From an uncultured Eubacterium sp. (lineage in GTDB: Bacteria; Bacillota; Clostridia; Peptostreptococcales; Anaerovoracaceae), in NCBI GenBank assembly GCA_946555345.1, contig CAMNSS010000003.1, positions 8,080-72,079 of the forward strand: a stretch of DNA of 64,000 nucleotides, written 5' to 3'. Shown here piece after piece: positions 43,864 to 61,291 of the stretch. The stretch's first letter is position 1, and each line of letters starts with the position of its first letter. Below the pieces are notes generated by a model. The model made no database searches. It was given only the letters and a program-made list of their open reading frames with translations, and was not told the DNA's origin. Made by a program: the position numbers and the translations under genes.

Positions 43864-44590
43864 ATCCGTTCACCCCCATATACGGAATCATTTTAAAAGT
43901 ATCCTTGAATACATCATCGATGGATTTGCCTTCCTTTTCTTTGATCTCATCGACGGACTCATGCCTGACGATCACGCCGTTCCGAATGAAAACCACTTCA
44001 TCGAGAACCCGTTCGATATCGGAGATGAGATGCGTGGATATCACCACCGTGCCTTCATCATTATAGCTGTTGATAATCGTGCTTAAAATATAATCCCTCG
44101 CCGCCGGATCGACGCCCGCAATCGGCTCATCCAGGAGATAAAGCTGCGCTTTCCTGCTCATGACGAGAATCAGCTGCACTTTTTCCTTCGTACCCTTGGA
44201 CATCGTCTTGATCCTGTCCTTTGGCTGGATTCCCATCGAAGCGCACATTTCTTCCGCTTTGCTCCTGTCAAAATCCTGATAAAAATCGCTGAACAGATCC
44301 AGCACATCCTTTACCGTCATCCAGCTGGCAAAATACGTTTTGTCAGGCAGGTAGCTGATCGCCGCCTTCGTATAAGCGCCCGGATGCGCCCCATCTATGA
44401 GCGCCTCCCCAAAGGTTGGCCGCAACAGCCCGCTTAAAAGCTTGATCAATGTCGTTTTGCCGCTTCCATTCGGACCTAAAAGCCCGATGATTTTTCCCCT
44501 GCCGATTTTCAGGTCAACGCAGTCAAGCGCTTTCTTGCCGGAAAAATTCTTGGTAAGCCCCTTACATTCTACCAGTAATTCCGTTCTCAT
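43853..44590 (-). CDS. ABC transporter ATP-binding protein
   Basis: GPNGSGKTT, MSKG, LLDEP. Confidence 0.93.
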   Translation of the reverse strand: MRTELLVECKGLTKNFSGKKALDCVDLKIGRGKIIGLLGPNGSGKTTLIKLLSGLLRPTFGEALIDGAHPGAYTKAAISYLPDKTYFASWMTVKDVLDLFSDFYQDFDRSKAEEMCASMGIQPKDRIKTMSKGTKEKVQLILVMSRKAQLYLLDEPIAGVDPAARDYILSTIINSYNDEGTVVISTHLISDIERVLDEVVFIRNGVIVRHESVDEIKEKEGKSIDDVFKDTFKMIPYMGVNGYDR

Positions 44591-44955
44591 TTATGTTCAA
44601 CCCCTCTCTCTTCAATCATTTTTATGACCTCGTCCGCACGATACCCGATCGCTTCCATTTCTTCCATGAAATTTTCAATTCTGTCCTTTGCTATGTTCTC
44701 TTTCATCTGTGCCACCAAATTTTCATCCGTCGTAACAGTCCTGCCCGAAGTCCGGTTAGTTATGACCAGGCCTTCGCTCTCAAGCTCGCGAAGCGCCCGC
44801 TGCATGGTATTCCGATTGACCCCCGCATCCTCCGCCAGTTCCCGCACCGTTGGAAAAGCGCTGCCCATCGGGTATTGCCCGGCTACGATGCTTCTCATCA
44901 TCTGCTCTTTCAGCTGAGGCCAAATCATCCTGTTATCATCCAAGTTCCAGTCCAT
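44587..44955 (-). CDS. GntR (YtrA subfamily) regulator
   Basis: PTVRELAEDAGVNRNTMQRA, RTSGRTV. Confidence 0.92.
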   Translation of the reverse strand: MDWNLDDNRMIWPQLKEQMMRSIVAGQYPMGSAFPTVRELAEDAGVNRNTMQRALRELESEGLVITNRTSGRTVTTDENLVAQMKENIAKDRIENFMEEMEAIGYRADEVIKMIEERGVEHK

Positions 44956-49796: not shown

Positions 49797-50015
49797 GCCT
49801 GGCGGCGAGTTTCAGTGAACGCTTCCGCCCGGCAGCGCCGCATCAATCAGTGCGTTCATTATAACGAGCAGGCCCGGCGCCGAGTTTCAGTGAACGCTTC
49901 CGCCTGGCAACGCCGCATCAATCAGTGCGTTCATTATAACGAGCAGGCCTGGCGGCGAGTTTCAGTGAACGCTCCCGCCCGGCAACGCCGTACCAATCAG
50001 TGCGTTCATTATAAC
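49797..50015. repeat. 75-bp tandem repeat, about 3 copies
   Basis: GAGTTTCAGTGAACGC recurs at 49807, 49882 and 49957; each unit contains the inverted repeat TGAACGC...GCGTTCA. Confidence 0.9.
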
Positions 50016-50354
50016 ATACAAATTTTGCTTTTTCCATCATCTTGAACCTTTTCAATTCCAGCACCATGAGCAAAACTTCCAGCCAAATTGAAAAAGAGAT
50101 ATTTACTTTTGCAAATAAATATCTCCCTTTTCAATTAGTTTAGCATTTCATAAATCTCTTATTTGCCAGCCAGCTGCTGCTCAGCCATTTCGACTAACTT
50201 CTTAGTCATATAACCGCCAACGTAACCGTTCTGTCTAGCAGGTTAGAGAGTATCCCGTCCCTGTGGACAGCAAGCTGTAAATACTTGCGGTCAAATGATA
50301 CATATCCTTATAGCCAAACAGCATCATCAGCGCCTTTTCAAAAGCATATGGCAT

Positions 50355-50690
50355 TCACCGGCTTATTTCCAGCCAGATTTCCGCAAGCAATGCGGCGATC
50401 GCCTCTTTCTTTTCCCCAGGAAATTCTGCGATCCATTTGCCTGACTGGTCTATATGTTTGATGATAAACTGCTTATCCGAAAAGTGAGTGTCATATACCA
50501 AAGCATCCAGCCCCACGCCCATATGTTCTGAAATATGAATCGCTGTTTCAAGGGTCGTGTTCCCGTCCCGCAAAATGGCTCTCAATGTCGATTTCGGTAT
50601 ATCAAGCTCTTCTGAAAATTCCATTAGGGAAAGTTGCTGCGACTTTTGGTATGCTTTCAGGTTTTCTGACAACAAATTTCTTTTCTTCAT
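50355..50690 (-). CDS. Xre-family HTH protein
   Basis: LSENLKAY...FSEELDIPKSTL...NTTLETAIHIS...LDALV. Confidence 0.75.
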   Translation of the reverse strand: MKKRNLLSENLKAYQKSQQLSLMEFSEELDIPKSTLRAILRDGNTTLETAIHISEHMGVGLDALVYDTHFSDKQFIIKHIDQSGKWIAEFPGEKKEAIAALLAEIWLEISR

Positions 50691-50916
50691 CTTTTCCCTC
50701 CTTCTTGATCCGAGAAGGAGGAAGGATTATCTGTTTCCTTCTATATTTATTATATCACATTGCTTTTCATAAATCTACTATTTTCGACAAATTTAGACAA
50801 AAAATAAATTTCATGGAAGAGCAATTCCCTGCCAAAAAGGATGTTCGGATAAAACCCGCCCCTGCGCCAAGCACAAGGTTTTCTTTGCACAGAAAAGGCG
50901 GCAATGCGCCGCCCTC

Positions 50917-51108
50917 TCATTCGATATCATCGTACAGTTCATATGGATCAAGGCCCAGCGCCTTAGCGATGATGAGGCCGTTTTTTAAGTTCGGCTCCCT
51001 GCGCCCGCTCCGATATCCCTCTATCGTCCTGACGCTGATCCCCGTCATCTCTTCCAACTGCTTTGACGAAACCTTCTTTTCCTTCATAATTTCCGACAAC
51101 TTCATCAT
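50917..51108 (-). CDS. Xre HTH protein, cassette 1
   Basis: LEEMTGISVRTIEGYRSGRREP; ATG overlaps the upstream peptide stop (ATGA). Confidence 0.85.
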   Translation of the reverse strand: MMKLSEIMKEKKVSSKQLEEMTGISVRTIEGYRSGRREPNLKNGLIIAKALGLDPYELYDDIE

Positions 51109-51200
51109 TTCTTGCTCCTTTTCAATGCCGTAACCGCAACAGCTAAAGCCGCAATGCTGATGCACAGGCTCACGATTCGCATGATCATATCTATTTGCAT
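51105..51200 (-). CDS. 31-aa hydrophobic peptide B, cassette 1
   Basis: MQIDMIMRIVSLCISIAALAVAVTALKRSKK*; TM plus basic tail; no clear RBS. Confidence 0.55.
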   Translation of the reverse strand: MQIDMIMRIVSLCISIAALAVAVTALKRSKK

Positions 51201-51223
51201 ATTATAAAGATGGATGATATAAT
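51195..51223 (+). promoter_or_regulatory. Antisense promoter, cassette 1
   Basis: TTGCAT-N17-TATAAT with extended TG. Confidence 0.6.
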
Positions 51224-51254
51224 AAACATATGCCCCATAAGGGGCGGGGAAGTT

Positions 51255-51362
51255 TTATTTCTTCCCCTTCTTATCTCTGGTAACTATGGTTAATGTTATA
51301 ATCGAAGCGGTCAAACTAACGATTGATGTAACCATGTCTATCAGAGATTTTATTATATCCAT
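51255..51362 (-). CDS. 35-aa hydrophobic peptide A, cassette 1 (type I toxin-like)
   Basis: MDIIKSLIDMVTSIVSLTASIITLTIVTRDKKGKK*; RBS AAAGGAGGTG; TTGACA-N17-TATAAT at 51418-51390. Confidence 0.7.
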   Translation of the reverse strand: MDIIKSLIDMVTSIVSLTASIITLTIVTRDKKGKK

Positions 51363-51675
51363 CTTTCCCCACCTCCTTTCTATATTTCTATTATACGTCG
51401 TTCGGCGTGATTTGTCAAGTGCAAAATTGCTTTTTTTATCATTTTTTCCATTATTTTATATATGGAGAAACGCCCCATGCGCCAGCACAATCATGAAGGA
51501 AAACACAAATGCCATTTTAAACAACACCCTCAATGAAAGGGAATGCAATCGGAGGCGTGCGGCATTGCCATAAACGGACGGCTTTCACAAATCTGCACCC
51601 CAAACAAAACAACGGCGGAACACAAACCGAAATGAACCGCCCCTTTGCTTACAAGTTTACCGCATACCGCATCAC

Positions 51676-52131
51676 TTAGCCTTCACCCAAGCCAGCATCA
51701 AATGAAAGGTACGTTGTCAAAATTGCGATCATCTCCGTATTGGATGGCCTTTCAGCCAACGAACGCTTTGCCATCTCGCAAAGAAAACCGGGATTTCGTT
51801 CCCAGGAAATCCTGCAAATCGTACGGATGTTCCGCTCCACGCATTCAGGGCTTGTGTGATACCTTCTGGCTATGTCAGGGTAAAGCCATTTGGTTACAAG
51901 GAGCAATCGGTCAGGCTCTTGGATGCAAAGCGAAACAGCACAAGCCATATAATTAAACCCTGCATAATTAATCGTAATCCCCAGCCTGAATAAGATGAGC
52001 GACATTCTTTGAAAGGCTTCATGATCCACCTGTCCGCCATCGCCTCCATTTTCACAACCCCCAGAAAGGGCAGCGCCCGCAATTTCTTGCACATTTTCCA
52101 TTTCTTTCGACAATAAATTACTTTTTTCCAT
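51676..52131 (-). CDS. Stand-alone Spo0A C-terminal (DNA-binding) domain protein
   Basis: GFNYM, LLLVTKWLYPDIARRYHTSPECVERNIRT, PSNTEMIAIL; no receiver domain. Confidence 0.8.
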   Translation of the reverse strand: MEKSNLLSKEMENVQEIAGAALSGGCENGGDGGQVDHEAFQRMSLILFRLGITINYAGFNYMACAVSLCIQEPDRLLLVTKWLYPDIARRYHTSPECVERNIRTICRISWERNPGFLCEMAKRSLAERPSNTEMIAILTTYLSFDAGLGEG

Positions 52132-52221
52132 GTTTTTCGCCTCCTCTTTCTTTAAGCATAAAAGAAAAAGACGGAAAATAGGACGCAGGATTTTAGCAGG
52201 CCTGGGCGAAATTACGCCCGT

Positions 52222-52533
52222 TCATAACATTTCCTTGTTTTTCATAAAAAAATCCTGCCGATGATTATCAAAGAAACACCCGACGCTCCCCGCCCGGCGC
52301 TTTCCACGCATAAAAAACATTGCCCCGTCCTCCAACGGGCTTGCTGCGGGCGCAGGCTTTCCATCCTCCAGTTCATCGAGAACCCAGCCAGACGCGGCAT
52401 CCATGCCCATGAGGATAGCTTCTGCCAGCGTGCCGCCTCCACTGACACAACCGGGAAGGTCCGGAACCTCAACAGCATAAGCTCCCTGCTTTTCTTCATC
52501 AGGGTAAAAACAAGCGGGATACGTTAATTTCAT
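52222..52533 (-). pseudogene. hicB: HicB antitoxin, C-terminally truncated
   Basis: MKLTYPACFYP...VPDLPGCVSGG-TLAEA...LEDGKPAPAASPLE, then unrelated sequence in place of the RHH domain. Confidence 0.75.
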
Positions 52534-52570
52534 AGACGAAACTTCCTTTATGATATTGCAGCGCCGGGTT

Positions 52571-52748
52571 TTACAGCCCGGCCTGCTTGAAAATTTGTTT
52601 GACGATTTGCAGGGCAATGTCTCCGGGATGCTTAGGAATTGTGGCCTTGCCCGCCTTTGATGGGTGTGTGTACTGACAATGCGAACCCTTTGCTTTCTTG
52701 TACCGCCATCCATCCGCTAAAATATTTTTTTATTTCCCAAAATCCCAT
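52571..52748 (-). pseudogene. hicA: HicA toxin, frameshifted in an A-run near the 5' end
   Basis: MGFWEIKK / ILADGWRYKKAKGSHCQYTHPSKAGKATIPKHPGDIALQIVKQIFKQAGL*; RBS AAGGAGG. Confidence 0.8.
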
Positions 52749-52977
52749 GCTGCGACCTCCTTGCAAATCACATTATGCGCATAATACGCATAATCATCAA
52801 GCAATTTTTTGCATTTTATTAAAGAATTATAAAATAAAATGCTTCCCCGTTGTTGCTTGGCGAGGCGCTTCCCTTGCCCAAAATCCAGCCTGTTTATCAC
52901 GCCCCAAAAGAGGTCATTATTAACCTTTGCATCCCTTTCAATATCCATATAAGCAACGCATTGCATGAAAGATATCA

Positions 52978-53006
52978 TTGCCTCCGGCATCATTTTTTTG
53001 TATAAT
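52978..53006 (+). promoter_or_regulatory. Antisense promoter, cassette 2
   Basis: TTGCCT-N17-TATAAT pointing into the hairpin at 53014-53034. Confidence 0.6.
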
Positions 53007-53056
53007 AACAAAAAGGCGGTGACAAGCCCGCCCCAAACATTTTCTTAGCCTGCTGC

Positions 53057-53191
53057 CTATTCAGCAGGCTTTTCTTTTTCGAGAAGTTCTGCTACTTTCG
53101 CTTTTGCTTCCGCTAAATCTTCACACCCATCCAGGATCATAGCTACCATTTTCAGTATTTTGCCAAGCTGCTTGTCCGTCATGTTTTCCAT
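53057..53191 (-). CDS. 44-aa helical small protein, cassette 2
   Basis: MENMTDKQLGKILKMVAMILDGCEDLAEAKAKVAELLEKEKPAE*; RBS AAAGGAG. Confidence 0.7.
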   Translation of the reverse strand: MENMTDKQLGKILKMVAMILDGCEDLAEAKAKVAELLEKEKPAE

Positions 53192-53281
53192 TGTTTTCTC
53201 CTTTCTCTGCTTGCCCAGCAATTAAGTTAATGCCTTAACTTAATTGTATTATACTAATATTGGTATAACTTCAAATATTTT

Positions 53282-53509
53282 TTAAAAATATTTCAATTTT
53301 TCTTCATCCGTTATGACCATCTCTATAATGTCCCCCGGCTGCTTTCTGCACATGATGCAAATTTTATTAAGCGTATCCAACGTTATGCTTTTCCCGGCCT
53401 TTATATTTGTCATTGTCTGGCGCGGCAATAAATTCTCCTTTTGTATCCGCGTCTGGTTAAACCCGTGCTTTTTCATCTCTTCAAAAACATCTATTTTGTA
53501 CCGTATCAC
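53282..53509 (-). CDS. Cro/C1-type HTH protein
   Basis: GTG start after GGAGGG; TMTNIKAGKSITLDTLNKICIMCRKQPGDIIE. Confidence 0.82.
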   Translation of the reverse strand: MIRYKIDVFEEMKKHGFNQTRIQKENLLPRQTMTNIKAGKSITLDTLNKICIMCRKQPGDIIEMVITDEEKLKYF

Positions 53510-53905
53510 TGCCTTTCCCTCCTTACTTTGCAATCGTAACATTCCGGCATACAAACGCCAATGGGTTTTATCCTAAAATTAGTATGATTCTATCAAAACC
53601 GCATTATCTTGGCACATAAGGAGAAATCGTTATTCCCCGTCGCGCCGCAACAGCAATTAGGGGGATGCCGCCTACGATCAGAAGCCAGCCTGCCCGCCAT
53701 CTCCCCAATGGCGATTCCGTGCCAGTTGCAAACCAATCCGGAATTATATTCTTATTGGAAGCCCTGCATCCAGATGTCGACAGGCCTTATGCTGCAGCCA
53801 GCAAACATCGATTGAAACCATTCGCCATAAACGAAAAACACATCAAAAAATAAATTGCGTTTTTATCTTTTCGCCAAACTTTTTTAAAATACGCTGCAAT
53901 ACGCA

Positions 53906-53934
53906 TTGACATATTGTGCAATATGTAGTATAAT
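53906..53934 (+). promoter_or_regulatory. Consensus sigmaA promoter with palindromic operator, cassette 3
   Basis: TTGACA-N17-TATAAT; CATATTG-TG-CAATATG overlaps the spacer. Confidence 0.8.
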
Positions 53935-53997
53935 AAAGATAGTTAAGCGAGATCCATAAGCTTAATGAATACCGGGCAAGCGAGAAAGAAGAACAGC

Positions 53998-54138
53998 ATG
54001 GAAGACATGGACAAAAAGGAAATAAAAGAAGTCATTGAATGGTGTGATGAAAAAGGGCATAGCGAACATGAAATTTTGGATTTAATCAGAAGAATCGTGG
54101 ATGCAAAGCCTAGAAAAGAAGAAAAGCCTAACGAATAG
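53998..54138 (+). CDS. 46-aa small protein, cassette 3
   Basis: MEDMDKKEIKEVIEWCDEKGHSEHEILDLIRRIVDAKPRKEEKPNE*. Confidence 0.68.
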   Translation: MEDMDKKEIKEVIEWCDEKGHSEHEILDLIRRIVDAKPRKEEKPNE

Positions 54139-54216
54139 GCTTCCGGAAAACAGAAAGGGCGGCGGACTTGCCAAAGCCGCCCAGACTGTAAAATATATTG
54201 TATATCATTTGGCAAG
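54124..54216 (+). ncRNA. Candidate structured RNA element (two hairpins plus possible pseudoknot)
   Basis: AAGCCTA/TAGGCTT stem over the stop; GGGCGGC/GCCGCCC stem 54157-82; loop CTTGCCAAA complementary to TTTGGCAAG 54208-16. Confidence 0.5.
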
Positions 54217-54236
54217 AAAAAGGAAGAGGGAAACGG

Positions 54237-54437
54237 ATGCAAAAAGAAAAAAAAGAATTTGACCAGATCAAATACCAAAACAAATTCATCAAAGAAAAGT
54301 ACGACCGCATCAATTTAACCGTACCCAAAGGCGAAAAAGCGGCGATCAAAGAGAAAGCGGAAGCAGCCGGGGAAAGCGTAAACGAATATATAAACCAGGC
54401 CATAAAGAAAAGAATGGAAAGCGGGGAAAATGCTTGA
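54237..54437 (+). CDS. Ribbon-helix-helix (Arc/CopG-like) protein, cassette 3
   Basis: YDRINLTVPKGEKAAIKEKAEAAGESVNEYINQAI. Confidence 0.82.
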   Translation: MQKEKKEFDQIKYQNKFIKEKYDRINLTVPKGEKAAIKEKAEAAGESVNEYINQAIKKRMESGENA

Positions 54438-54845
54438 AAAATGCATTGTTGAAATCCGTTTTATGAAAGCCATGCCGTTTTGCCGCATAAAAAACCGCCG
54501 CCCCTCGATGCCCATCGCATGAGGGGCGGCATTTCACTGCGAGCATCTGTTGCTCCATGCACCCCAGCCTGCAAGAACGGGGCTTTCGCCCGTTTCCAAA
54601 CCATCAAAGCGGGCCTTGCCCGATTTCAGAATTTTCTCTCGTCTGCCAAATAAGCTTGCGTAATTTCCTTTTTTCATGCAGCAAAAGCTTCCCCGGCGTC
54701 TTCTATTTCTTCCACCTCCTGACGATTACTGCGATCAACACGATATCTGCAATAATAATGCCAATGTCCGCTACCATTCCTATGACCTTCATTTTCTTCT
54801 TTCTCTCCTTGTGACGGTCCATGTTGGCAACGAGCCGTGAAAAAG
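54334..54845. repeat. ~0.5-kb direct repeat, copy 1 (copy 2 at 56166-56650)
   Basis: Shared RHH 3' end, GC-rich terminator hairpin, peptide B gene and GAGCCGTGAAAAAG end. Confidence 0.85.
54703..54792 (-). CDS. 29-aa hydrophobic peptide B
   Basis: MKVIGMVADIGIIIADIVLIAVIVRRWKK*. Confidence 0.68.
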   Translation of the reverse strand: MKVIGMVADIGIIIADIVLIAVIVRRWKK

Positions 54846-54853
54846 CGATCTTT

Positions 54854-55057
54854 TTATTCTTCTTGTTCTGCTGCTTCCATTTTATCTTTTACCGCCGAAT
54901 ATACAAACTCATTCACGCTTTGCCCTGCCGCCGCTGCCCTTTCTTTTATAATTGCCTTTTCCCCCTTTGGCACAAGCAATTCCATGCGGTCATAAGTTCT
55001 TTTCTTGTATTCGTTCTGATACTTCACTTGGTCGAACTCTTTTTTTATTTTTGGCAT
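54854..55057 (-). CDS. Ribbon-helix-helix protein, cassette 4
   Basis: YDRMELLVPKGEKAIIKERAAAAGQSVNEFVYSAV; paralog of 54237..54437. Confidence 0.82.
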   Translation of the reverse strand: MPKIKKEFDQVKYQNEYKKRTYDRMELLVPKGEKAIIKERAAAAGQSVNEFVYSAVKDKMEAAEQEE

Positions 55058-55076
55058 TTATGCCCTCTTCCTTTCC

Positions 55077-55179
55077 CTTGCCAAATCGTGTATAATCTAT
55101 TTTACAGATATGGGCGGCTTTGGCAAGTCCGCCGCCCTTTCTGTTTCTTGGAAGCCTTACTATTTATTGAGTAAGGCTT
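55077..55179 (-). ncRNA. Candidate structured RNA element, second copy
   Basis: 10-bp stem over the stop (55152-79), GGGCGGC stem 55112-37 with identical loop, complement at 55077-85. Confidence 0.5.
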
Positions 55180-55300
55180 TTACTTTTTCCTTTGCTTCTG
55201 CAAGGTCTTTACTCTCATTTAAGATTTCAAGAATTTTTCTCGTCTGATTTTCCTCTGCCGTTTCTTTAAGGATTTCACCTACATTCATTTCTTCGTCCAT
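55160..55300 (-). CDS. 46-aa helical small protein, cassette 4
   Basis: MDEEMNVGEILKETAEENQTRKILEILNESKDLAEAKEKVKALLNK*; shares DLAEAK-KV--LL with 53057..53191. Confidence 0.72.
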   Translation of the reverse strand: MDEEMNVGEILKETAEENQTRKILEILNESKDLAEAKEKVKALLNK

Positions 55301-55364
55301 GTTTTTTTCCTTTCCCTGCCGCCCAGTTATTTGTTAAGTTTATGTATCTCCCTTAACTGTCTTT

Positions 55365-55393
55365 ATTATACAACATATTTCGTACTATGTCAA
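55365..55393 (-). promoter_or_regulatory. Consensus sigmaA promoter with direct-repeat operator, cassette 4
   Basis: TTGACA-N17-TATAAT; CATATTTCGTACTA occurs twice. Confidence 0.8.
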
Positions 55394-55539
55394 TACATAT
55401 TTCGTACTAATTAAAAAAGCATAATTTTTTTATGAGGAGAGGAAGGTATGAATATGCAATATATATTACGTAAATTAGATAATACATATTAGCAATACGT
55501 AATTTATGTAATATAATATGCATTGTAAGGCGGTTGGTT

Positions 55540-55716
55540 ATGAAAGGCAAAGAGCTTGTAAAGCTGTTCAAAAAAGATGGCTGGGAAGCGACCAGAGTAA
55601 GAGGAAGCCATCATGTGATGAAAAAAGGCAATTAGGTTGAAGTAATCCCAGTACATAGCACCGGCATACCAATCGGCCTGGCAAATAAAATACGAAAGCG
55701 GGCAGAGCTTAAATAA
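55540..55716 (+). pseudogene. hicA: HicA toxin with internal amber stop
   Basis: MKGKELVKLFKKDGWEATRVRGSHHVMKKGN*VEVIPVHSTGIPIGLANKIRKRAELK*; TAG at 55633-35. Confidence 0.82.
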
Positions 55717-55751
55717 ACCTAGCATCGCTTTGATTGAAGGGAACGCATATT

Positions 55752-56126
55752 ATGTTAAAAGTATATCCTGCCATATTTCATGAAGAAGACGGTTTCCGGG
55801 TCGAGTTCCCGGACCTTGATGGCTGCAATGCCTGTGGAAACACCCTTGAGGAAACTATGGAGCTTGCGCAAGAGGCGCTTTGCCTTTATCTTGCTACGCT
55901 TGCAGAAGAAGACCTTGAAATTCCTTTCCCATCACCCATAAAAGACATAAAAACCGACGGCTTTGTATCATATGTTTCCACAAACATGGATAAGTACCGC
56001 AGAAATAACAAGGCGGTTAAAAAAACGTTATCCATACCGCAATGGCTCGCCGATGAAGCAGAAAAAAATAATCTTAGCCTGTCCAAGGTTTTACAAGAAG
56101 GATTAAAAACCCGTCTTGGATTATAA
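55752..56126 (+). CDS. hicB: HicB antitoxin, intact
   Basis: YPAIFHEE, VEFPDLDGC, AQEAL, C-terminal KAVKKTLSIPQWL...SLSKVLQEGL. Confidence 0.9.
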   Translation: MLKVYPAIFHEEDGFRVEFPDLDGCNACGNTLEETMELAQEALCLYLATLAEEDLEIPFPSPIKDIKTDGFVSYVSTNMDKYRRNNKAVKKTLSIPQWLADEAEKNNLSLSKVLQEGLKTRLGL

Positions 56127-56165
56127 CGACAAAAGCCCCCATCGCCAGGGCTGGCCGCAAAATAA

Positions 56166-56650
56166 AAAAAGCGGCGGCCAAAGAGAAAGCGGAAGCAGCT
56201 GGGGAAAGCGCAAACGAATATAGAAACCAAGCCATAAAGAGAAAAATGGAGAGCGGGGAAAATGCTTGAAAACCGCACTGACAATCTCCTTTTTGTTGAA
56301 GCCATGCCGTTTTGCCGCATAAAAGAAACCGCCGCCCCTCGATGCCCATCGCATGAGGGGCGGCGGCATTTCACTGCAAGCATCTGTTGCTCCATGCACC
56401 CCAGCCTGCAAGAACAGGGCTTTGCTGATTCCAGGATTTCCGCTCGTCCGCCAAATGAGCTTGCGCGACTTCCTTTTTTCATGAATCAAATGCTTTCCCA
56501 GCGCCTTCTAGTTCTTCCACCTCCTGACGATTACTGCGATCAGCACGATATCTGCGATAATAATGCCAATGTCCGCTACAATTCCTATGATCTCCATTTC
56601 CTTCCTCCTCTCCCTGTGACGATTTATATTGACAACGAGCCGTGAAAAAG
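56166..56650. repeat. ~0.5-kb direct repeat, copy 2 (begins with an RHH 3' fragment)
   Basis: Aligns with 54334-54845. Confidence 0.85.
56508..56597 (-). CDS. 29-aa hydrophobic peptide B, cassette 5
   Basis: MEIIGIVADIGIIIADIVLIAVIVRRWKN*; RBS GAGGAGG. Confidence 0.72.
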   Translation of the reverse strand: MEIIGIVADIGIIIADIVLIAVIVRRWKN

Positions 56651-56657
56651 TTATCAT
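56629..56657 (+). promoter_or_regulatory. Antisense promoter, cassette 5
   Basis: TTGACA-N17-TATCAT directly before hairpin 56665-87. Confidence 0.7.
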
Positions 56658-56690
56658 TCTCTTAGGGCGGGGCTTTCGCCCCTGCCCTCC

Positions 56691-56810
56691 TTACTCAATC
56701 AGCTTATCAATCAGTGTTATGATTGCGCTGATGAGCTGAATTAAAACCGTGACGAGGATGATTTTTTCAACGTTGGTATCCTCTTTGCGGTTTTTCTTTT
56801 TCCTGCCCAT
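56691..56810 (-). CDS. 39-aa peptide A, cassette 5
   Basis: MGRKKKNRKEDTNVEKIILVTVLIQLISAIITLIDKLIE*; RBS AAGGAGG; TTGACA-N17-TATAAT at 56892-56864. Confidence 0.75.
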   Translation of the reverse strand: MGRKKKNRKEDTNVEKIILVTVLIQLISAIITLIDKLIE

Positions 56811-56938
56811 TGTTCCTGCCTCCTTTTTGTGATATATTTAAGTTAATTTCTTAACTTGGTTATATTATATCTTATTTTTATGAGATTGTCAATGTATTTT
56901 TCTTATTTTTATGAGATTTTGAATGGAGGGCAAAACCT

Positions 56939-57154
56939 GTGTTTTGGGAACGTTTTTACAGTATGTGCGTTGCAAAAGGCACAAAGCCAAACCCTGTTGC
57001 CAAAGAAATCGGCATTTCTTCTGGAATTGTAACTAAATGGAAAAATGTTGGGACACTCCCTAATGGTGAAACCTTAATTAAAATCGCCGACTACCTCGGC
57101 TGCTCCGTTGACTACCTCCTCGGCAGGACGGACAAACCAGAAGTAAACCGTTAG
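56939..57154 (+). CDS. Xre HTH repressor, divergent, cassette 5
   Basis: VAKEIGISSGIVTKWK...LIKIADYLGCSVDYLLGRTD; RBS GGAGG. Confidence 0.88.
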   Translation: MFWERFYSMCVAKGTKPNPVAKEIGISSGIVTKWKNVGTLPNGETLIKIADYLGCSVDYLLGRTDKPEVNR

Positions 57155-57230
57155 GTTTCTTTTTGTTTCCTTTCCCTGCCATCAGGATTGCAGGCAATGC
57201 GCCGTTCATTTCCTGCCCCCTTCTTTATAT

Positions 57231-57471
57231 TATACAGTTTCGTCAGTTTTCCCGTTCCGTTTTGGCGGGCTGGTTTCCCTTTGCAAGCAGGCATTCAAGC
57301 CCGCATCCCAGGACGTCCGCTATTTCCTTCCCGGCCTGCAGTGACGGGTTTTTCGTCCCCCCTTTCAACCTGGCAGAGCATCGCCTGGAAGATGCCCGCC
57401 CGTTCAGCAAGGCGCGCCTGCGTCAGCCCCTTTTCTTCCCTGATGCGGCGGATGTTGTCCCCTGCGCCCAT
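57231..57471 (-). pseudogene. Xre HTH gene with +1 frameshift in a G6 tract, cassette 6
   Basis: MGAGDNIRRIREEKGLTQARLAERAGIFQAMLCQVERG / TKNPSLQAGKEIADVLGCGLECLL; tract at 57357-62. Confidence 0.75.
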
Positions 57472-57560
57472 TATCCATTCCACCTTCTTGCGATATAGAC
57501 AATTACTGACAGATAAAAAACCACTTCAATTCCTTTAAAAACCCAATACAAAATATTCAT
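57471..57560 (-). CDS. 29-aa hydrophobic peptide B, cassette 6
   Basis: MNILYWVFKGIEVVFYLSVIVYIARRWNG*; stop overlaps the Xre ATG (TAATG). Confidence 0.68.
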   Translation of the reverse strand: MNILYWVFKGIEVVFYLSVIVYIARRWNG

Positions 57561-57593
57561 GTCCGCCATCCTTCCTTCATTAAAATATTTATA

Positions 57594-57622
57594 TTGACAA
57601 TGCGCCTCGAAAAAGTTATCAT
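57594..57622 (+). promoter_or_regulatory. Antisense promoter, cassette 6
   Basis: TTGACA-N17-TATCAT before hairpin 57630-52. Confidence 0.7.
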
Positions 57623-57652
57623 TTCCGTAGGGAGGGGCTTTCGCCCCATCCC

Positions 57653-57784
57653 TTACTCAATGAGTTCTTTGATGATTTCCATCAGTATCTCAATGAGCTC
57701 AAGTATTGCGATTGCAAGAAGTATGTGTTCTCTGTGTGAACTCTTCTTGCTTTCGCTTTTTTTGCGCTTCTTTTTCCTGCCCAT
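57653..57784 (-). CDS. 43-aa peptide A, cassette 6
   Basis: MGRKKKRKKSESKKSSHREHILLAIAILELIEILMEIIKELIE*; RBS AGGAGG; TTTACA-N17-TATAAT at 57866-57838. Confidence 0.72.
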   Translation of the reverse strand: MGRKKKRKKSESKKSSHREHILLAIAILELIEILMEIIKELIE

Positions 57785-57910
57785 TGCTTTTTGCCTCCTG
57801 TTCTGGTATATTTTAGTTAATTTCTTAACTTGGTTATATTATATCATGCTATTACGTGATTGTAAATACTTTTTTCATGTTTTAGCGTGATTTTTTAGGA
57901 GGGGTGTGTC

Positions 57911-58138
57911 ATGTATGATTTAGAACTAATTGCTTTTCGCATAAAACAAACTTCAAAAGCCAAGAAAATTCCCATGAAAACCCTTCTTTCAGAATGCCAT
58001 CTCGGCATTAACGCCGTATCTGAAATGGCAAAAGGAAAGACCATGTCTTCTATAAATCTCGCCAAAATCGCCGACTACCTCGGCTGCTCCGTTGACTACC
58101 TCCTCGGCAGGACGGACAAACCAGAAATTAATAAATAA
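57911..58138 (+). CDS. Xre HTH repressor, divergent, cassette 6
   Basis: C-terminal KIADYLGCSVDYLLGRTDKPE; RBS AGGAGG. Confidence 0.85.
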   Translation: MYDLELIAFRIKQTSKAKKIPMKTLLSECHLGINAVSEMAKGKTMSSINLAKIADYLGCSVDYLLGRTDKPEINK

Positions 58139-58182
58139 AAAACAAGCCCGCTTTTTCTTTGCCGCCTATCCGTCTCCCCAGC

Positions 58183-58335
58183 CTACCGCCTAACCAAATC
58201 CCTGACGATGCACCCCAGCAACGCCAACGCATTCAACGAAACAGCCACTTTACAAAACACCGTCCATTCAAGCGTTATTGCTATTACCAGATTTACGCCT
58301 AATGCCCCTGCCAGCCAGTTTCTTGCCTTGTTCAT
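58183..58335 (-). CDS. 50-aa two-TM peptide B, cassette 7
   Basis: MNKARNWLAGALGVNLVIAITLEWTVFCKVAVSLNALALLGCIVRDLVRR*; RBS GGGAGGG. Confidence 0.65.
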   Translation of the reverse strand: MNKARNWLAGALGVNLVIAITLEWTVFCKVAVSLNALALLGCIVRDLVRR

Positions 58336-58353
58336 GATAACCCTCCCTATCTA

Positions 58354-58382
58354 TTGACTTATCTATTACGATATGATAGACT
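58354..58382 (+). promoter_or_regulatory. Antisense promoter, cassette 7
   Basis: TTGACT-N17-TAGACT before the GC hairpin near 58389-58415. Confidence 0.5.
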
Positions 58383-58425
58383 TTTTACAAGGACGGGGGC
58401 TTCCGCCCCTGCCCTTGGCTATCCT

Positions 58426-58527
58426 TTAGGACTTAATAGCTGTTATCAAAGCGGCAATGGTGGCAACACTTTGGATAACGATATTTGCTATTTCCTTTTT
58501 GGATAGCTTTTCTTTTTCATCTTTCAT
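58426..58527 (-). CDS. 33-aa peptide A, cassette 7
   Basis: MKDEKEKLSKKEIANIVIQSVATIAALITAIKS*; RBS AAAGGAG; TTGACA-N17-TATAAT at 58589-58561. Confidence 0.7.
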   Translation of the reverse strand: MKDEKEKLSKKEIANIVIQSVATIAALITAIKS

Positions 58528-58677
58528 ATCGTTTTCTCCTTTCCTCTTGTCTGTAATTTTATTATAACTCTACTTTATGTAGATGTCAATACTTTTTGTA
58601 AACTTTTTTTAATTTTTGTATTGATTTTTTCTACTTTATGTAATATACTTTTCTATACAGGGAGGATTTTTCTAATT

Positions 58678-59340
58678 ATGAATGATGATCAATATAAAAG
58701 AATTTTTTCCGAAAACCTAAAGAGATACATGGCGTTAAATAACAAAAACCAAATAGATTTGATTAATGATTTAAAACTCAATAAATCCGCTGTTTCTACA
58801 TGGTGTAATGGAACAAGGCTTCCAAGAATGGATAAGATTGAAATTTTAGCAAAATACTTTAATGTCAATCGCTCTGACCTGATAGAAGAACATGATTTCA
58901 CTAATAATGCCACCGGCGGCCTCAATCCCTGCGGCAATACAGCCCCCCTCCCAGCGGAGAAAATCCCCCTGCTGGCCGGATTAGCCAATGGAGAACTTTT
59001 GTTCTACGGCGAGGACAGGGAAAGCTATGTCCTCGCAGGCACGGGCATTGACGCTGATTTCTGCCTCAAAGCCAGGGGGGACAGCATGATTGGCGCCAGG
59101 ATACTCGACGGGGACATCGTATTTATCAGAAAGACCAGCACGGTGGACAACGGGGAAGTTGCCGCCGTTGCAATGGACGATGAAGTGTCATTAAAACGGG
59201 TTTATTATTTCAAAGACGAAAGCCTGCTGATGCTCCTGTCCGAAAATCCGCAATACCCGCCGGAGTGCTATAAGGGCGGGCAACTGGATCACATACGGAT
59301 TCTCGGCAAGGCCGTTGCCTTCCAGGGCAGTATCATATAA
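58678..59340 (+). CDS. CI/LexA-like repressor (Xre HTH plus S24 peptidase), divergent, cassette 7
   Basis: VSTWCNGTRLPRMDKIE HTH; GDSM (catalytic Ser), DGDIVFI, SLKRV (catalytic Lys), SENP; cleavage-site-like LAG. Confidence 0.92.
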   Translation: MNDDQYKRIFSENLKRYMALNNKNQIDLINDLKLNKSAVSTWCNGTRLPRMDKIEILAKYFNVNRSDLIEEHDFTNNATGGLNPCGNTAPLPAEKIPLLAGLANGELLFYGEDRESYVLAGTGIDADFCLKARGDSMIGARILDGDIVFIRKTSTVDNGEVAAVAMDDEVSLKRVYYFKDESLLMLLSENPQYPPECYKGGQLDHIRILGKAVAFQGSII

Positions 59341-59610
59341 GCGATGCCAGAGAAATTTGCCTTTCAGCCAAATGTTTCACCGCCTTCGTAAAATCATTGC
59401 TGCCTTTTATTTGTAATCACGTTAGGATGTTGTCTCACAGTGAGGATTTCAGCCTCCCTGTGAAGGCTTTGCGGCTAGCTCGTCCAAAATCTCAATTAAC
59501 ATTTTTAAATGTTCGTTGGGATTTTTTATTATTTTACAATATGATAATTTACAAAAGGCGCTTTGCAAAGAAATAAACGGGCTGCACAACAGTTTCAGCC
59601 CGTTTGTTTC

Positions 59611-59796
59611 TTATTTCTGTAATTCCTGGCAGACACAATCGATTCCTTTCCTGATGATATCGGTTTTTGTCATCCCGGTTTTTTCCATGCAAAATCTTAT
59701 CTTTTGCATATCTTCTTCGGAAAGCCTGAAACTTTCCCGGTAGCTTTTAGGATTGTCAGTAGGCCTGCCCATCCGTTTCTTTTCTATTTTCATCAC
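59611..59796 (-). CDS. RHH/CopG-like small DNA-binding protein, cassette 8
   Basis: MGRPTDNPK..ESFRLSEED...TGMTKTDIIRKGI. Confidence 0.78.
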   Translation of the reverse strand: MMKIEKKRMGRPTDNPKSYRESFRLSEEDMQKIRFCMEKTGMTKTDIIRKGIDCVCQELQK

Positions 59797-59805
59797 CTCT
59801 TGACC

Positions 59806-59869
59806 CTTGCCATGATAAACATATATATGATAATATATATTTAGTAATTGGGCGGTGGCAAGCCCGCCC
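59806..59869 (-). ncRNA. Candidate structured RNA element, third copy
   Basis: GGGCGG/CCGCCC stem with loop GCTTGCCA; complement TGGCAAG at 59812-06 just before the RBS. Confidence 0.45.
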
Positions 59870-59898
59870 TTTACTGTTTTGCTGGGTTATGCCCCTTT

Positions 59899-60054
59899 TT
59901 AGTCTTCCAAAGTGCTTTGAAGGTTGTCCAAAATCTTTTCAAGCCTTTGGTTTTTCTTTTTTTCATCCGTTTCTTCCTTTGCCTCTTTCAGGTCGTCTAT
60001 CAGAAATCGGATGAACCCGTTGAACTGCTTGTCTGTCATTCCCATGCCCTGCAT
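59899..60054 (-). CDS. 51-aa helical small protein, cassette 8
   Basis: MQGMGMTDKQFNGFIRFLIDDLKEAKEETDEKKKNQRLEKILDNLQSTLED*; MTDKQ shared with 53057..53191; TTGACT-N17-TATAAT at 60145-60117. Confidence 0.72.
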   Translation of the reverse strand: MQGMGMTDKQFNGFIRFLIDDLKEAKEETDEKKKNQRLEKILDNLQSTLED

Positions 60055-60158
60055 ATTGTCTCCTTTCCGGCTTCTTGCCTGCCTTACTTGTTAAGTTTTC
60101 CCTTAACTGTAATTATATTATACATTATGTTATGACAAAAGTCAAGAGGTTTTGAAAA

Positions 60159-60401
60159 TTATTTATGAAATTCTTCAAGGTCGCTGACCCTATGGTTTAC
60201 GACTTTTATCTTTTCTTTATTAATGCCCACCGCCTGTTCAAGCAGATAAGTGCGCTCCACGAGGTTGTTGTGCTTGTCCACTTTCTTTTCAAGTTGCCCG
60301 ATCCTGTAGCCTGTCAGCCTGCTCGACGCAATCACGCCGAACAGGGAGCCTAAAAGACCCCCCGCCGCCGCAATGGCGGCAACGATGATTTCCGTGTCCA
60401 T
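60159..60401 (-). CDS. Phage lysis-module membrane protein (TM plus coiled coil, XhlA-like)
   Basis: N-terminal TM, LEKKVDKHNNLVERTY coiled region; follows the endolysin. Confidence 0.6.
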   Translation of the reverse strand: MDTEIIVAAIAAAGGLLGSLFGVIASSRLTGYRIGQLEKKVDKHNNLVERTYLLEQAVGINKEKIKVVNHRVSDLEEFHK

Positions 60402-60412
60402 AGCTCCCCCTC

Positions 60413-61291
60413 CTACAGCCTGCTGTTGATGTAGCGCTGCCATGCCCTGACGGTTTTTGCTCCCATGTATCCGTCAATCTGCCCGCACGGGAAGCCTTTG
60501 CCCTGCAAAAGCCCCTGCATGGCCGTGACAGTCTGCTTTCCTGCCTTGCCGTCCGGCGCTGCCCCTGCCAGCCCCTGGATTGCCCGCACCATTGGCGAAC
60601 CGTTACCTGTTTTCCCGAAAGACCACGAAGACACAAGGCAGTTTGGCAAATACTGCTTACAGCTTATGAGCTGCCCTGACACGATGCCGTCAGCAGGCGT
60701 CCCCATCACCGCCTGGGTCTTCCTTGTGGTGTCCTTCCCCCACTTGCCATCCTCATCCAGCTTCCCCGGCAGCCTGCCTGATGGGGCTTCGCCTGTGTCT
60801 GCCGCGCCGCCCATCGCAGCGGTCACCATATTTAAAAACCTCTGCCATCCGTAAGCCATCGTCCTGTGCGGGCAGTCCTTGCCGCTCCAGTCCTTGTGCC
60901 GCCTTACCCGGTCAATGCCCCAGCCGTAAGATTTTAGCAATGAGGCGATGTACGCCGCCGCATTCTGCTCTGCCGCATCAAACCTTGCGCCCCCGGACCT
61001 CGAGTAGCAGATTTCTATCCCAATCGACTTGCGGTTTCCCGTGCCGTTCCCGCCGTCCCCGGCATGGAACGCATTTCGGTCAAACGGGAGGCAACGCACG
61101 ACTTCCTTGTCATCCACTGCCACGTGGTAAGATGTCGAAGAACTGTTGTTCCTCATGTAATTCGCCTCGTTCCTTGCGCTTGCGTCGTTTGCCGTGTTAT
61201 GCACCGTGACGTACTGCGGCGTCATTTTGTACGGGCTTTTCTTCCCGTACTTGCCGGACGGTACCGGCAGGTCAATTATCGTGTATGGCAT
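60413..61291 (-). CDS. Endolysin, N-acetylmuramoyl-L-alanine amidase (Amidase_2, XlyA-like) with PG-binding repeats
   Basis: TVHNTANDASARNE, HAGDG, SIGIEICYS, HKDWSGKDCPH; DG-x2-G-x2-T repeats. Confidence 0.92.
   Translation of the reverse strand: MPYTIIDLPVPSGKYGKKSPYKMTPQYVTVHNTANDASARNEANYMRNNSSSTSYHVAVDDKEVVRCLPFDRNAFHAGDGGNGTGNRKSIGIEICYSRSGGARFDAAEQNAAAYIASLLKSYGWGIDRVRRHKDWSGKDCPHRTMAYGWQRFLNMVTAAMGGAADTGEAPSGRLPGKLDEDGKWGKDTTRKTQAVMGTPADGIVSGQLISCKQYLPNCLVSSWSFGKTGNGSPMVRAIQGLAGAAPDGKAGKQTVTAMQGLLQGKGFPCGQIDGYMGAKTVRAWQRYINSRL

Follow-up and report, generated by a model that had tools for sequence, protein, structure and literature searches.

A conserved intercistronic module with a predicted antisense RNA gene in small-protein/ribbon-helix-helix cassettes of phages of gut Clostridia

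At the right end of a 64,000-nucleotide stretch of DNA from an uncultured Eubacterium sp. (contig CAMNSS010000003.1, positions 8,080 to 72,079; hereafter the window, numbered from its first letter), the late genes of a prophage lie on the minus strand, with tail genes, an amidase endolysin gene (60413–61291) and a small holin-like open reading frame (ORF), and an array of small self-contained cassettes spans positions ~50900–60150. We deal here with the four Class II cassettes of this array and with the intercistronic element that they carry. Cassettes A (53906–54437, plus strand), B (55393–54854, minus strand) and C (60145–59611, minus strand) each consist of a small ORF followed by a gene for a ribbon-helix-helix (RHH) protein, and cassette D (~53260–53013, minus strand) has a small ORF without an RHH gene downstream. 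All follow one plan, in which a consensus or near-consensus promoter is followed by a leader stem-loop at the expected transcript start, a long Shine-Dalgarno sequence and an ORF of 44–51 codons. A and B are close paralogues over the intercistronic block (94% and 84% identity), and the window alone therefore offers little independent evidence. Relatives were collected through the RHH protein (8 viral and 80 genome loci) and through a loop-free hairpin pattern (94 viral loci, about half of them true elements), and more were added by a covariance model, which brought the total to about 50 unique elements; they come from Lachnospiraceae, Acetatifactor, Roseburia, Oscillospiraceae and other gut Clostridia, and individual loci are given L numbers below. 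Among these elements, small ORFs of five unrelated families are combined with RHH genes of eight or more subtypes.

The small ORFs are found at 53998–54138 (A, plus strand; 46 aa, acidic and helical), 55160–55300 (B, minus strand; 46 aa), 59899–60054 (C, minus strand; 51 aa) and 53057–53191 (D, minus strand; 44 aa, with no RHH gene after it). Against relatives, ORF A differs by 12–13 synonymous versus 0–3 non-synonymous codon changes and ORF B by 15–23 versus 3–10, and judging from these differences (12–23 versus 0–10 taken together) the small ORFs are real genes. The nucleotide constraint in the intercistronic elements exceeds the constraint at the synonymous sites of these ORFs. The Class II products are acidic and hydrophilic and have no hydrophobic segment, and searches of Pfam, PHROG, NCBIfam and PADLOC with the small ORFs gave no usable match.

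The second gene encodes an Arc-like protein with the beta-strand RINLTV in A (54238–54437, plus strand, 66 aa; phrog_13890, E 8e-23; Shine-Dalgarno at 54222–54230), an Arc-like protein with the beta-strand RMELLV in B (54854–55057, minus strand, 67 aa), and a member of a different RHH family in C (59611–59796, minus strand, 61 aa; phrog_876). The RHH proteins of A and B match phrog_13890 and Arc-like phrogs and show the RHH domain signature; a profile of 40 RHH homologues matches the structures of pArc (2e-4), Arc (1.1e-3) and TacA/KacA, and Pfam RHH_1 (19.8 bits) and NikA-like (25.8 bits) score slightly below their cut-offs. The main promoters of A (53906–53934, plus strand) and B (55365–55393, minus strand) are both TTGACA-17-TATAAT (12/12), that of A being flanked by two ATAT-N7-ATAT repeats (about 53889–53928) and that of B carrying AGTACGAAATATG repeats; the promoter of C (60145–60117, minus strand) is an 11/12 match. 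In A, the leader stem-loop (53942–53966, GTTAAGC...GCTTAAT) stands at the expected mRNA start, and it is conserved in at least 40 leaders. The two ATAT-N6/7-ATAT repeats that flank the main-promoter −35 closely track the beta-strand type of the RHH protein (window positions 53889–53928 and 55365–55410; loci L002–L181), with ATATT(G/A)CG(T/C)AATAT for RINLTV, ATAGTACG(A/G)AATAT for RMELLV, ATATGYCGnnATAT for RIEIKV, ATATTACAGAATAT for RFELVM and ATATTCCGGAATAT for RVEILV/RVEVNM; L139 is a chimera whose repeat type is mismatched to its RHH. Because the repeats co-vary with the beta-strand, the RHH protein is very probably the autorepressor of the main promoter of its cassette.

Between the two genes lie two stems, both of which had been seen in a first-pass annotation made from the window alone. 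The first, H1, overlaps the stop codon of the small ORF, and its sequence differs from copy to copy with the pairing retained in A (54122–54144, AAGCCTA/TAGGCTT), B (55149–55182, AAGCCTTACT/AGTAAGGCTT) and D (53047–53070); C has just a weak stem of 3–4 bp. Homologues with GCCTTAC/GTAAGGC, GCCCTAC/GTAGGGC or GCTTTAC/GTAAAG keep the pairing as well. The second, the GGGCGG/CCGCCC hairpin H2 that follows the stop stem, was confirmed at 54157–54182, 55112–55137, 59850–59869 and 53013–53034, and it is longer than first described, as a lower stem ACAG/CTGT lies beyond a 3x3 internal loop. In A (54150–54189) this lower stem and internal loop are followed by the upper stem GGGCGGC/GCCGCCC and a loop with CTTGCCAAA (54167–54175), and H2 of B (55104–55144) has the same CTTGCCAAA loop at 55127–55119 on the minus strand. 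H2 of C (59827–59880; 45.9 bits) reads GGGCGG GCTTGCCA CCGCCC with a lower stem AGTAA/TTACT and the plus-strand continuation TTTACTGTTTT, and that of D (53013–53034; 32.2 bits) has the loop GCTTGTCA and spans 53013–53070 together with H1. Across 41 distinct H2 sequences, both sides change in 8 of 11 pairs, and none of 500 shuffles matched the observed covariation value; lower stems include CAG/CTG, TAG/CTA, AAG/CTT, AAAAG/CTTTT and CAC/GTG, and upper stems GGGCGG/CCGCCC, GGGGTGG/CCCCACC, GGGGGCAG/CTGCCCCC and GGTGTCAG/CTGGCACC. Compensatory changes across homologues thus support the stems of both H1 and H2. The comparison with Rfam that the first-pass annotation had suggested gave no match in the cassettes (Rfam 15 cmscan of positions 50000–61000, both strands, E <= 1). 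A second type of leader (CTGGGCGGCAGGGAAAGG; window 55315–55324 and the leaders of L002, L015 and L029) contains GGGCGGC, the 5' arm of H2, which is complementary to the 3' arm of H2 and could form an alternative long-range pairing.

The two stems acquire a further meaning when they are read on the opposite strand. A terminator scan calls H1 on the strand opposite to the genes, and only the antisense strand has a U-tract: with its minus-strand continuation TTTTCTTCTTTTCT, H1 of A has the form of an intrinsic terminator (antisense −10.5 versus sense −7.9 kcal/mol), and in B the plus-strand continuation is TTTTACTTTTTCC (antisense −16.3 versus sense −13.0 kcal/mol). The corresponding A-tract of the sense strand is retained even where it lies past the stop codon and is non-coding (L081 and the phage Montmirail, described below). 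Folded as RNA, 26 of 40 unique H1 sequences are more stable in the antisense and 9 in the sense orientation, since C-A mismatches of the sense strand are G-U pairs of the antisense strand in at least four lineages. The lower stem of the type 2 relatives (AACAG/CCGTT) shares this asymmetry, and when the whole region is folded, the antisense RNA is the more stable one in 32 of 43 sequences. By these features, H1 behaves like a terminator of antisense transcription; L087, L112 and L172 lack it or have a weak form, and just H2 plus UUUCUGUUU is available there.

A promoter for this strand is indicated in the 28-nt AT-rich spacer from H2 to the RHH ribosome site. Its sole conserved hexamer is ATTATA, or TATAAT when read from the other strand; it ends in an invariant A, and the base just ahead of the hexamer varies. 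These conservation boundaries fit an antisense −10 and do not fit a sense −10. The antisense −10 is TACAAT in A (54197–54202, minus strand; TATAAT in most relatives), whose type 1 arrangement lacks a good −35, and TATAAT in B (55091–55096, plus strand), where the base of H2 begins 7 nt downstream. In all contexts in which something other than the type 1 block lies downstream, there is a −35 box 16–18 nt from this −10. In C (59807–59834, plus strand) the promoter reads TTGCCA-16-GATAAT (10/12) and in D (52978–53006, plus strand) TTGCCT-17-TATAAT (10/12). The −35 matches the consensus at five of six positions in C, in the type 2 relatives (TTGCCA-17, overlapping the RHH start ATGGCAAG), in L012 (TTGTCA-17), L081 (TTGTCA-16), L186 (TTGACT-18-TATACT) and L014 (TTGAAA-17-TATGAT), and at four of six in D, in L172 (TTGCAA-18), and in L237, L240 and the Blautia phage Montmirail (TTGTAA-17). 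Six unrelated contexts therefore have a 5/6 antisense −35 at 16–18 nt, for which the chance estimate is ~0.2 among ~13 contexts. Furthermore, the base of H2 lies 5–9 nt (median 7) past the antisense −10 in at least 40 unique elements, which is the expected transcription start. The main promoters of these cassettes likewise have a stem-loop at +1, and a stem-loop at the start of both transcripts suggests a local design for a stabilised 5' end.

Promoter, start position and terminator together predict a cis-antisense RNA of 60–90 nt that would consist of H2 at its 5' end, a linker, and the terminator H1 with its U-tail. The predicted RNA of A covers 54112–54190 on the minus strand (~79 nt; −30.1 kcal/mol, z −3.97) and that of B 55104–55190 on the plus strand (~87 nt; −36.0 kcal/mol, z −6.1), both with inferred ends; those of C (59841–59900, ~60 nt) and D (53013–53082, ~70 nt) would be plus-strand RNAs. 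The predicted RNAs of A, B and D fold far better than shuffled sequences, which that of C does not (z −1.45). The RNA would overlap ~30–40 nt of the small-ORF coding sequence. From this concurrence of signals, we consider it likely that the module contains an antisense transcription unit. We rejected a candidate arrangement for type 1 in which the box described below would serve as −35 to another antisense −10 (TACAGT, 18–19 nt), since neither the hexamer nor its spacing is good and transcription would begin inside the stem. The neighbouring Class I cassettes (window 56508–56892 and 57471–57866; two small membrane peptides) resemble Class II in layout, with a GC hairpin with a GAAA loop directly after gene 1, followed by an antisense TTGACA-17-TATCAT whose start lies at the hairpin base; their hairpin has no U-tract, and that antisense RNA would therefore run into gene 1.

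The third component of the module is a complementarity between the H2 loop and the ribosome sites. The first-pass annotation had pointed out that the loop CTTGCCA(AA) is complementary to (TT)TGGCAAG upstream of the RHH Shine-Dalgarno, and this holds in A, B and C. The box, which we call P3, is TTTGGCAAG directly 5' of the RHH Shine-Dalgarno in A (54208–54216, plus strand; −13.0 kcal/mol) and TTTGGCAAG upstream of it in B (55077–55085, minus strand; −13.5 kcal/mol), and in C the complement of the loop at 59862–59856 is found at 59812–59806 (minus strand). A second box, P5 (GGCAAG or GGCAGG, 3–5 nt 5' of the small-ORF Shine-Dalgarno), precedes the first cistron; in what is a biased sample, 20 of 23 representative cassettes have it, as do 38 of 42 unique leader modules. 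It is GGCAAG in A (53975–53980, plus strand; −10.3 kcal/mol), C (60074–60079, minus strand) and D (53210–53215, minus strand), and the variant GGCAGG, with one G-U pair to the loop, in B (55315–55320, minus strand; −10.5 kcal/mol). Neither this box nor the antisense promoter and terminator had been identified in the first-pass annotation. In many relatives (leaders of L013, L022, L044, L054, L061, L087 and L102), the P5 box lies within an in-frame upstream ATG (ATGGGCAAGCATAGAAAGGAG...) that would extend the small protein by MGKHRKE(N), so that alternative small-ORF starts are possible.

The H2 loop is nearly invariant across elements (CTTGCCAAAG/A), with conservation over 9–10 nt. Over the whole window, TGGCAAG shows no enrichment (17 occurrences versus 13 expected), and the signal lies in its position: dinucleotide shuffling gave p = 0.001, 0.03, 0.011, 0.008 and 0.04 for the positional loop–box complementarity in five non-homologous contexts, and the Fisher combination over ten sequence contexts, three negative ones included, is ~2e-5. 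The P3 complement of 6–9 nt is found just 5' of the Shine-Dalgarno in type 1 elements, before the Shine-Dalgarno in C and L186, and on the start codon in type 2, L012 and L240, and the loop–box arm spacing is 30, 35–37, 43, 46–47, 52 or 62 nt. A complementarity that occurs in ~8 unrelated contexts at such variable distance (30–62 nt) fits RNA pairing better than a fixed operator. Loop–box duplex energies are −10 to −15 kcal/mol in standard cassettes. In L014, the loop is TTCCTGC and the matching GCAGGAA is present at both boxes (AGCAGGAAG before both cistrons); in L054, the loop CTTACC goes with the P5 box GGTAAG, the sole leader with that change, and its P3, UGGUAG on the RHH start, is a 5-nt exact match that alone is not above chance (p 0.69); the duplex energies of L054 are −8.2 and −6.2 kcal/mol. 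In L239, loop motif and box are both absent. G-U pairs that are functional in the sense RNA alone recur, namely in the GGCAGG leaders, in L045 and in D, whose loop CTTGTC would pair in this way with GGCAAG. A search for more loop variants with the pattern GGNGGACTTHCCNAANCCGCCC gave 0 matches in viral contigs and 36 chance matches in high-GC coding DNA of metagenome contigs. A pairing of the box with the RHH start-codon region (UUUGGCA with AUGCCAAA) was set aside, as it is confined to RHH proteins starting with MPK and absent in A.

Our data suggest that the region serves as an intercistronic control module, conserved and exchangeable, which is centred on a cis-antisense RNA gene whose product would compete with loop–box pairing, a reading that in our estimate stands about as good a chance of being right as wrong. 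A sigma-A-type antisense promoter would fire ~7 nt before H2, so that H2 becomes the 5'-terminal stem-loop of the RNA; transcription would then cross the stop codon of the small ORF and end at the hairpin and U-tract of H1. In the sense mRNA, H2 would display the loop CUUGCC(AAA), which could pair with P3 at the RHH Shine-Dalgarno or start codon and may also pair with P5 ahead of the small ORF. The loop of the antisense RNA carries the box sequence, and the RNA is fully complementary to the hairpin region; it should therefore out-compete the boxes for the sense loop or possibly trigger cleavage of the duplex. The level of the RHH repressor relative to the small protein would in consequence be set by the antisense RNA. 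Pairing should be repressive with a box over the start codon and could act in either direction with a box 5' of the Shine-Dalgarno; that the antisense RNA is made, that the loop–box pairings form and in which direction they act is what we infer. Taken by itself, a function of the loop–box pairing at the RNA level is in our view evenly balanced. With greater reserve we propose a three-way RNA switch on a mobile module, with one loop, boxes at the ribosome sites of both cistrons and a box-mimicking antisense RNA, which would set the ratio of effector to RHH protein and be swapped among unrelated phage cassettes of gut Clostridia, including that of a cultured Blautia phage; this full scheme is tentative, and we think it more likely than not to fail in some part.

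Several observations speak against the competition between antisense RNA and loop–box pairing. Among 20 alignable type 1 homologues, there is no loop–box covariation, the 6-bp core being invariant. At each of the three pairs of the AAA/TTT extension, 5 to 8 of the 20 sequences are unpaired, and the conserved part is therefore limited to CUUGCC/GGCAAG. The first-pass annotation had looked to covariation of the loop pairing across homologues for a decision; within close homologues, this measure is uninformative, and the support stems from distant, non-alignable contexts. The matched loop and box changes come from two to three lineages, in metagenome-assembled genomes, and L046 has the loop CTTACC with boxes that are still GGCAAG, an uncompensated change (−3.7 and −6.3 kcal/mol). 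The loop motif is kept without a P3 box in L110, L059, L237 and L236, so that the loop must have a role that is independent of P3. On the antisense side, A and B, the type 1 copies to which the first-pass annotation referred, have a good −10, but no −35 can be recognised, as its place is taken by the complement of the RHH Shine-Dalgarno, and a strand test of H2 that counted G-U against A-C found 382 sense versus 370 antisense paired cells and thus no net bias. The loop sequence TTGCCA is itself −35-like and lies in B and C 16–18 nt from an AT-rich −10-like hexamer. Finally, the loci were gathered via the RHH protein or the hairpin itself, and frequencies are therefore biased.

The −35-like loop leads to a reading at the DNA level, in which overlapping opposed promoters occupy the region: the loop TTGCCA would be a sense −35 for the RHH gene and the box an antisense −35, the hairpins would be terminators or insulators, and the complementarity a by-product. 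B with TTGCCA-16-TAAAAT and C with TTGCCA-18-TATATT carry such promoter-like sequences on the sense strand, the box sits exactly at the antisense −35 position (16–17 nt) in the type 2 relatives and C, and an internal promoter for the repressor gene is common, as in the sinI-sinR layout. The possibility that the CTTGCCA halves represent an antisense −35, raised in the first-pass annotation, thus holds for C and type 2 (TTGCCA-16/17-TATAAT), and it fails for A, B and all type 1 elements, where the box lies 5–7 nt from the antisense −10 and hence is no −35. The box is likewise off the −35 position in L012, L054, L186 and L240, whereas true −35 boxes vary freely (TTGTCA, TTGACT, TTGTAA). Overall, the distance from the box to the antisense −10 is 0–3, 7, 13, 16–17, 23 or >30 nt, and serving as antisense −35 is therefore an occasional and not the general role of the box. 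The sense −10 is poorly conserved (TAAAAC, TTAGAT, TAAGTG, AAAAAC), the 9–10 nt of loop conservation exceed what a −35 requires, P5 before the small ORF has no promoter role, and L014 and L054 alter loop and boxes together. We consider overlapping promoters as the whole explanation unlikely.

A purely cis-acting H-type pseudoknot in the bicistronic mRNA, in which the loop pairs with the RHH-side box and tunes or couples RHH translation with no antisense RNA involved, would account for the complementarity in ~8 contexts at variable spacing, for the matching changes in L014 and L054 and the G-U pairs that function in sense RNA alone, and for the duplex energies of −10 to −15 kcal/mol; a second stem of 6–7 bp should be sterically feasible for a loop of 12–14 nt. 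What it leaves unexplained are the conserved antisense TATAAT, the −35 boxes at 16–18 nt and the hairpin base at +1, as well as the U-tract and G-U asymmetry of H1 on the other strand, and it does not sit well with a loop that is kept in cassettes without RHH gene and without P3 (D, L172, L237), nor with the lack of covariation among alignable homologues. The first-pass annotation had favoured a cis-regulatory RNA or pseudoknot that couples RHH translation to the upstream ORF. Much of this stands, as the module is conserved and non-coding, the stems are real, the loop–box complementarity is confirmed and matched boxes were found, clearly in L014 and in L054 for P5 (weakly for P3). The coupling does not: the stop codon of ORF A (54136–54138) and the RHH start (54238) are 100 nt apart, and likewise in B and C, which makes termination–reinitiation coupling unlikely, and the stem at the stop codon has the character of an antisense terminator. 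As the sole mechanism, we regard the cis pseudoknot as rather unlikely.

That the block is mainly a conserved linker, a boundary sequence for the swapping of cassette halves by homologous recombination with motifs that are not regulatory, appears improbable. Five unrelated small-ORF families and at least eight RHH types are indeed joined via the same block, and chimeras such as L139 and L036 exist; compensatory stem changes, exact promoter geometry and U-tracts are, however, not needed for recombination, and mosaicism is equally expected of a mobile regulatory module. The weakest alternative, also raised in the first-pass annotation, is that the CTTGCCA halves form an inverted-repeat operator for the cassette RHH or another DNA-binding protein, which is highly improbable even though RHH proteins bind repeats and an inverted repeat lies close to the start of the regulator gene, since the same loop and boxes accompany RHH proteins with the DNA-reading strands RINLTV, RMELLV, RIEIKV, RFELVM, RVGIVM, RVEILV and RITLLL as well as the unrelated RHH C, L014 (RINLTV) and L054 (RMELLV) have altered boxes with an unaltered strand, the main-promoter repeats and not loop or box co-vary with the RHH type, the arm spacing is not fixed (30 to 62 nt), and G-U-type variants (GGCAGG, CTTGTC) would make different DNA sites. 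Comparison of the sequences establishes the stems, the promoter and terminator signals, the complementarity and the independence of the latter from the RHH type, and each of the four alternatives leaves several observations unexplained.

Other features of the array deserve mention. In L036, L044, L061, L070 and L119, the type 1 box and Shine-Dalgarno block is retained, the old RHH start has decayed to TTG CCG AAA TAG, and another RHH begins ~30 nt beyond with its own Shine-Dalgarno, which is evidence of recombination within the module. Small hydrophobic peptides that end in RRWKK/RRWKN (MKVIGMVADIGIIIADIVLIAVIVRRWKK) are encoded on the minus strand at 54703–54822, directly after RHH B on the same strand, and at 56508–56657, and look like peptides of the type I toxin kind. 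A duplication of 0.5 kb (54334–54858 versus 56166–56663, 84–98% identity) comprises the 3' half of RHH A, a GC-rich hairpin region and the hydrophobic peptide gene; its second copy lies downstream of hicB and leaves an RHH gene fragment there. The hicA-like ORF at 55534–55725 is broken by an in-frame TAG at ~55636, and the hicB-like gene that follows (55734–56126) is intact and has an RHH-like C-terminal tail. At the left edge of the array, a 75-bp tandem repeat occupies 49797–50015 (2.9 copies, 93% matches).

A covariance-model search found the element in 4 of 401 genomes of the family to which the window belongs and in 14 of 401 in the family of the L029 genome; it is rare and patchy, as expected of phage cargo, and it is present in IMG/VR contigs. 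The whole module is also found in the cultured Blautia phage Montmirail (ON453898.1, ~44430–44730, minus strand; L243 1100–1400), where the genes are annotated just as hypothetical. There, a promoter with the palindrome CATTCGTACGAATG, a leader stem-loop and GGGCAAGC before the Shine-Dalgarno precede a 45-aa ORF, which is followed by GAGCC-GAAA-GGCTC preceded by an A-tract, a GC hairpin with the loop GCTTGCCA, and the antisense TTGTAA-17-TATAAT. The next gene is annotated to start at a TTG inside the hairpin, which looks wrong; a GTG at about locus position 1060 fits better. Our literature search found no publication that describes this module. If our interpretation is true, abundant gut Firmicutes (Lachnospiraceae, Blautia, Acetatifactor and relatives) have temperate phages that employ a portable RNA-level control block of ~120 nt. 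It would unite an antisense RNA with loop-to-ribosome-site pairing, two classic mechanisms for which enterobacterial plasmids and P22 have so far been the main examples. A large set of uncharacterised cassettes of a small protein and an RHH protein, with a layout like that of anti-defence operons, is marked by this block, which would be a useful search handle for them. Its occurrence in a phage that can be grown on Blautia coccoides makes the model directly testable, as it predicts one small RNA with defined ends and two boxes that affect translation.

How does such a module relate to known systems? The PeSL cassettes of T4-type phages place short conserved blocks of stem-loop and promoter between variable small ORFs and are shuffled in a modular fashion. 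They share with our element the portable stem-loop-plus-promoter block, but their promoters are co-directional with the genes, and to our knowledge no loop–box complementarity has been described for them. In type I toxin–antitoxin systems of Firmicutes (bsrG/SR4, txpA/RatA), a small RNA that has a promoter and a terminator of its own converges on small ORFs of prophages and overlaps their 3' end. The Class II cassettes resemble them in the predicted convergent RNA over the 3' end of the small ORF, and the neighbouring Class I cassettes encode hydrophobic peptides; the Class II proteins, however, are hydrophilic and acidic and not membrane peptides, the overlap is short, and a second protein gene is part of the operon.

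A layout similar to that of our cassettes is known from self-repressed acr-aca operons, which include the RHH regulator Aca14, and in which Aca1 and Aca2 bind RNA motifs (PMC13551039). Both begin with a repeat-bearing promoter close to the consensus; next comes a single small ORF that is acidic and evolves fast, and after it the gene of a small repressor. Here the promoter repeats co-vary with the reading residues of the repressor (with one chimera, L139). For the small ORFs of our cassettes, no Acr or anti-defence function is known (no PADLOC, Pfam or NCBIfam matches), and the RNA element is intercistronic and independent of the repressor type, not an operator mimic in the 5' untranslated region. 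The closest phage analogue is the immI region of P22 (Pant-arc-[sar]-ant, mnt), the 'ant moron', in which an Arc-type RHH autorepressor is combined with a short antisense RNA from an intercistronic promoter (PMC2629481; PMC5415839). Both are accessory blocks next to late or lysis genes with an Arc-type RHH and an intercistronic antisense promoter. The gene order is reversed, however, as the RHH gene is the leading one in P22 and the second one here. The RNAs also differ in what they span: sar lies over the ribosome site of ant, the gene downstream, and the RNA predicted here over the hairpins and the 3' end of the preceding gene, leaving the RHH ribosome site uncovered. In sequence the two systems are not similar.

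The interplay of loop, box and antisense RNA finds its counterpart in IncI-alpha/IncB plasmids (ColIb-P9 repY-repZ with Inc RNA, pMU720 repBA with RNAI), where, as summarised in PMC8053102 (citing Asano & Mizobuchi 1998 and Praszkier & Pittard 2002), the antisense RNA binds a hairpin loop that otherwise pairs near the rep Shine-Dalgarno. Going by that account, an mRNA hairpin loop is complementary to a sequence adjoining the Shine-Dalgarno of the downstream cistron in both systems (PMC8053102), and in both a cis-antisense RNA, here a predicted one, extends over the hairpin, bears the sequence of the distal partner and can compete with the pseudoknot. So far as the plasmids are described there, their hairpin lies upstream of the leader ORF, and here it follows the small ORF; their leader stop overlaps the rep start and leader translation unmasks the partner, whereas here the stop is ~100 nt from the RHH start. 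The same comparison sets apart the second box ahead of the first cistron, the origin from a Firmicutes phage and not an enterobacterial plasmid, and the partner that in some relatives covers the start codon, which suggests repression and not activation. As the stop codon of the first ORF does not abut the downstream start, the module described here would thus work like the IncI-alpha system without being a member of it.

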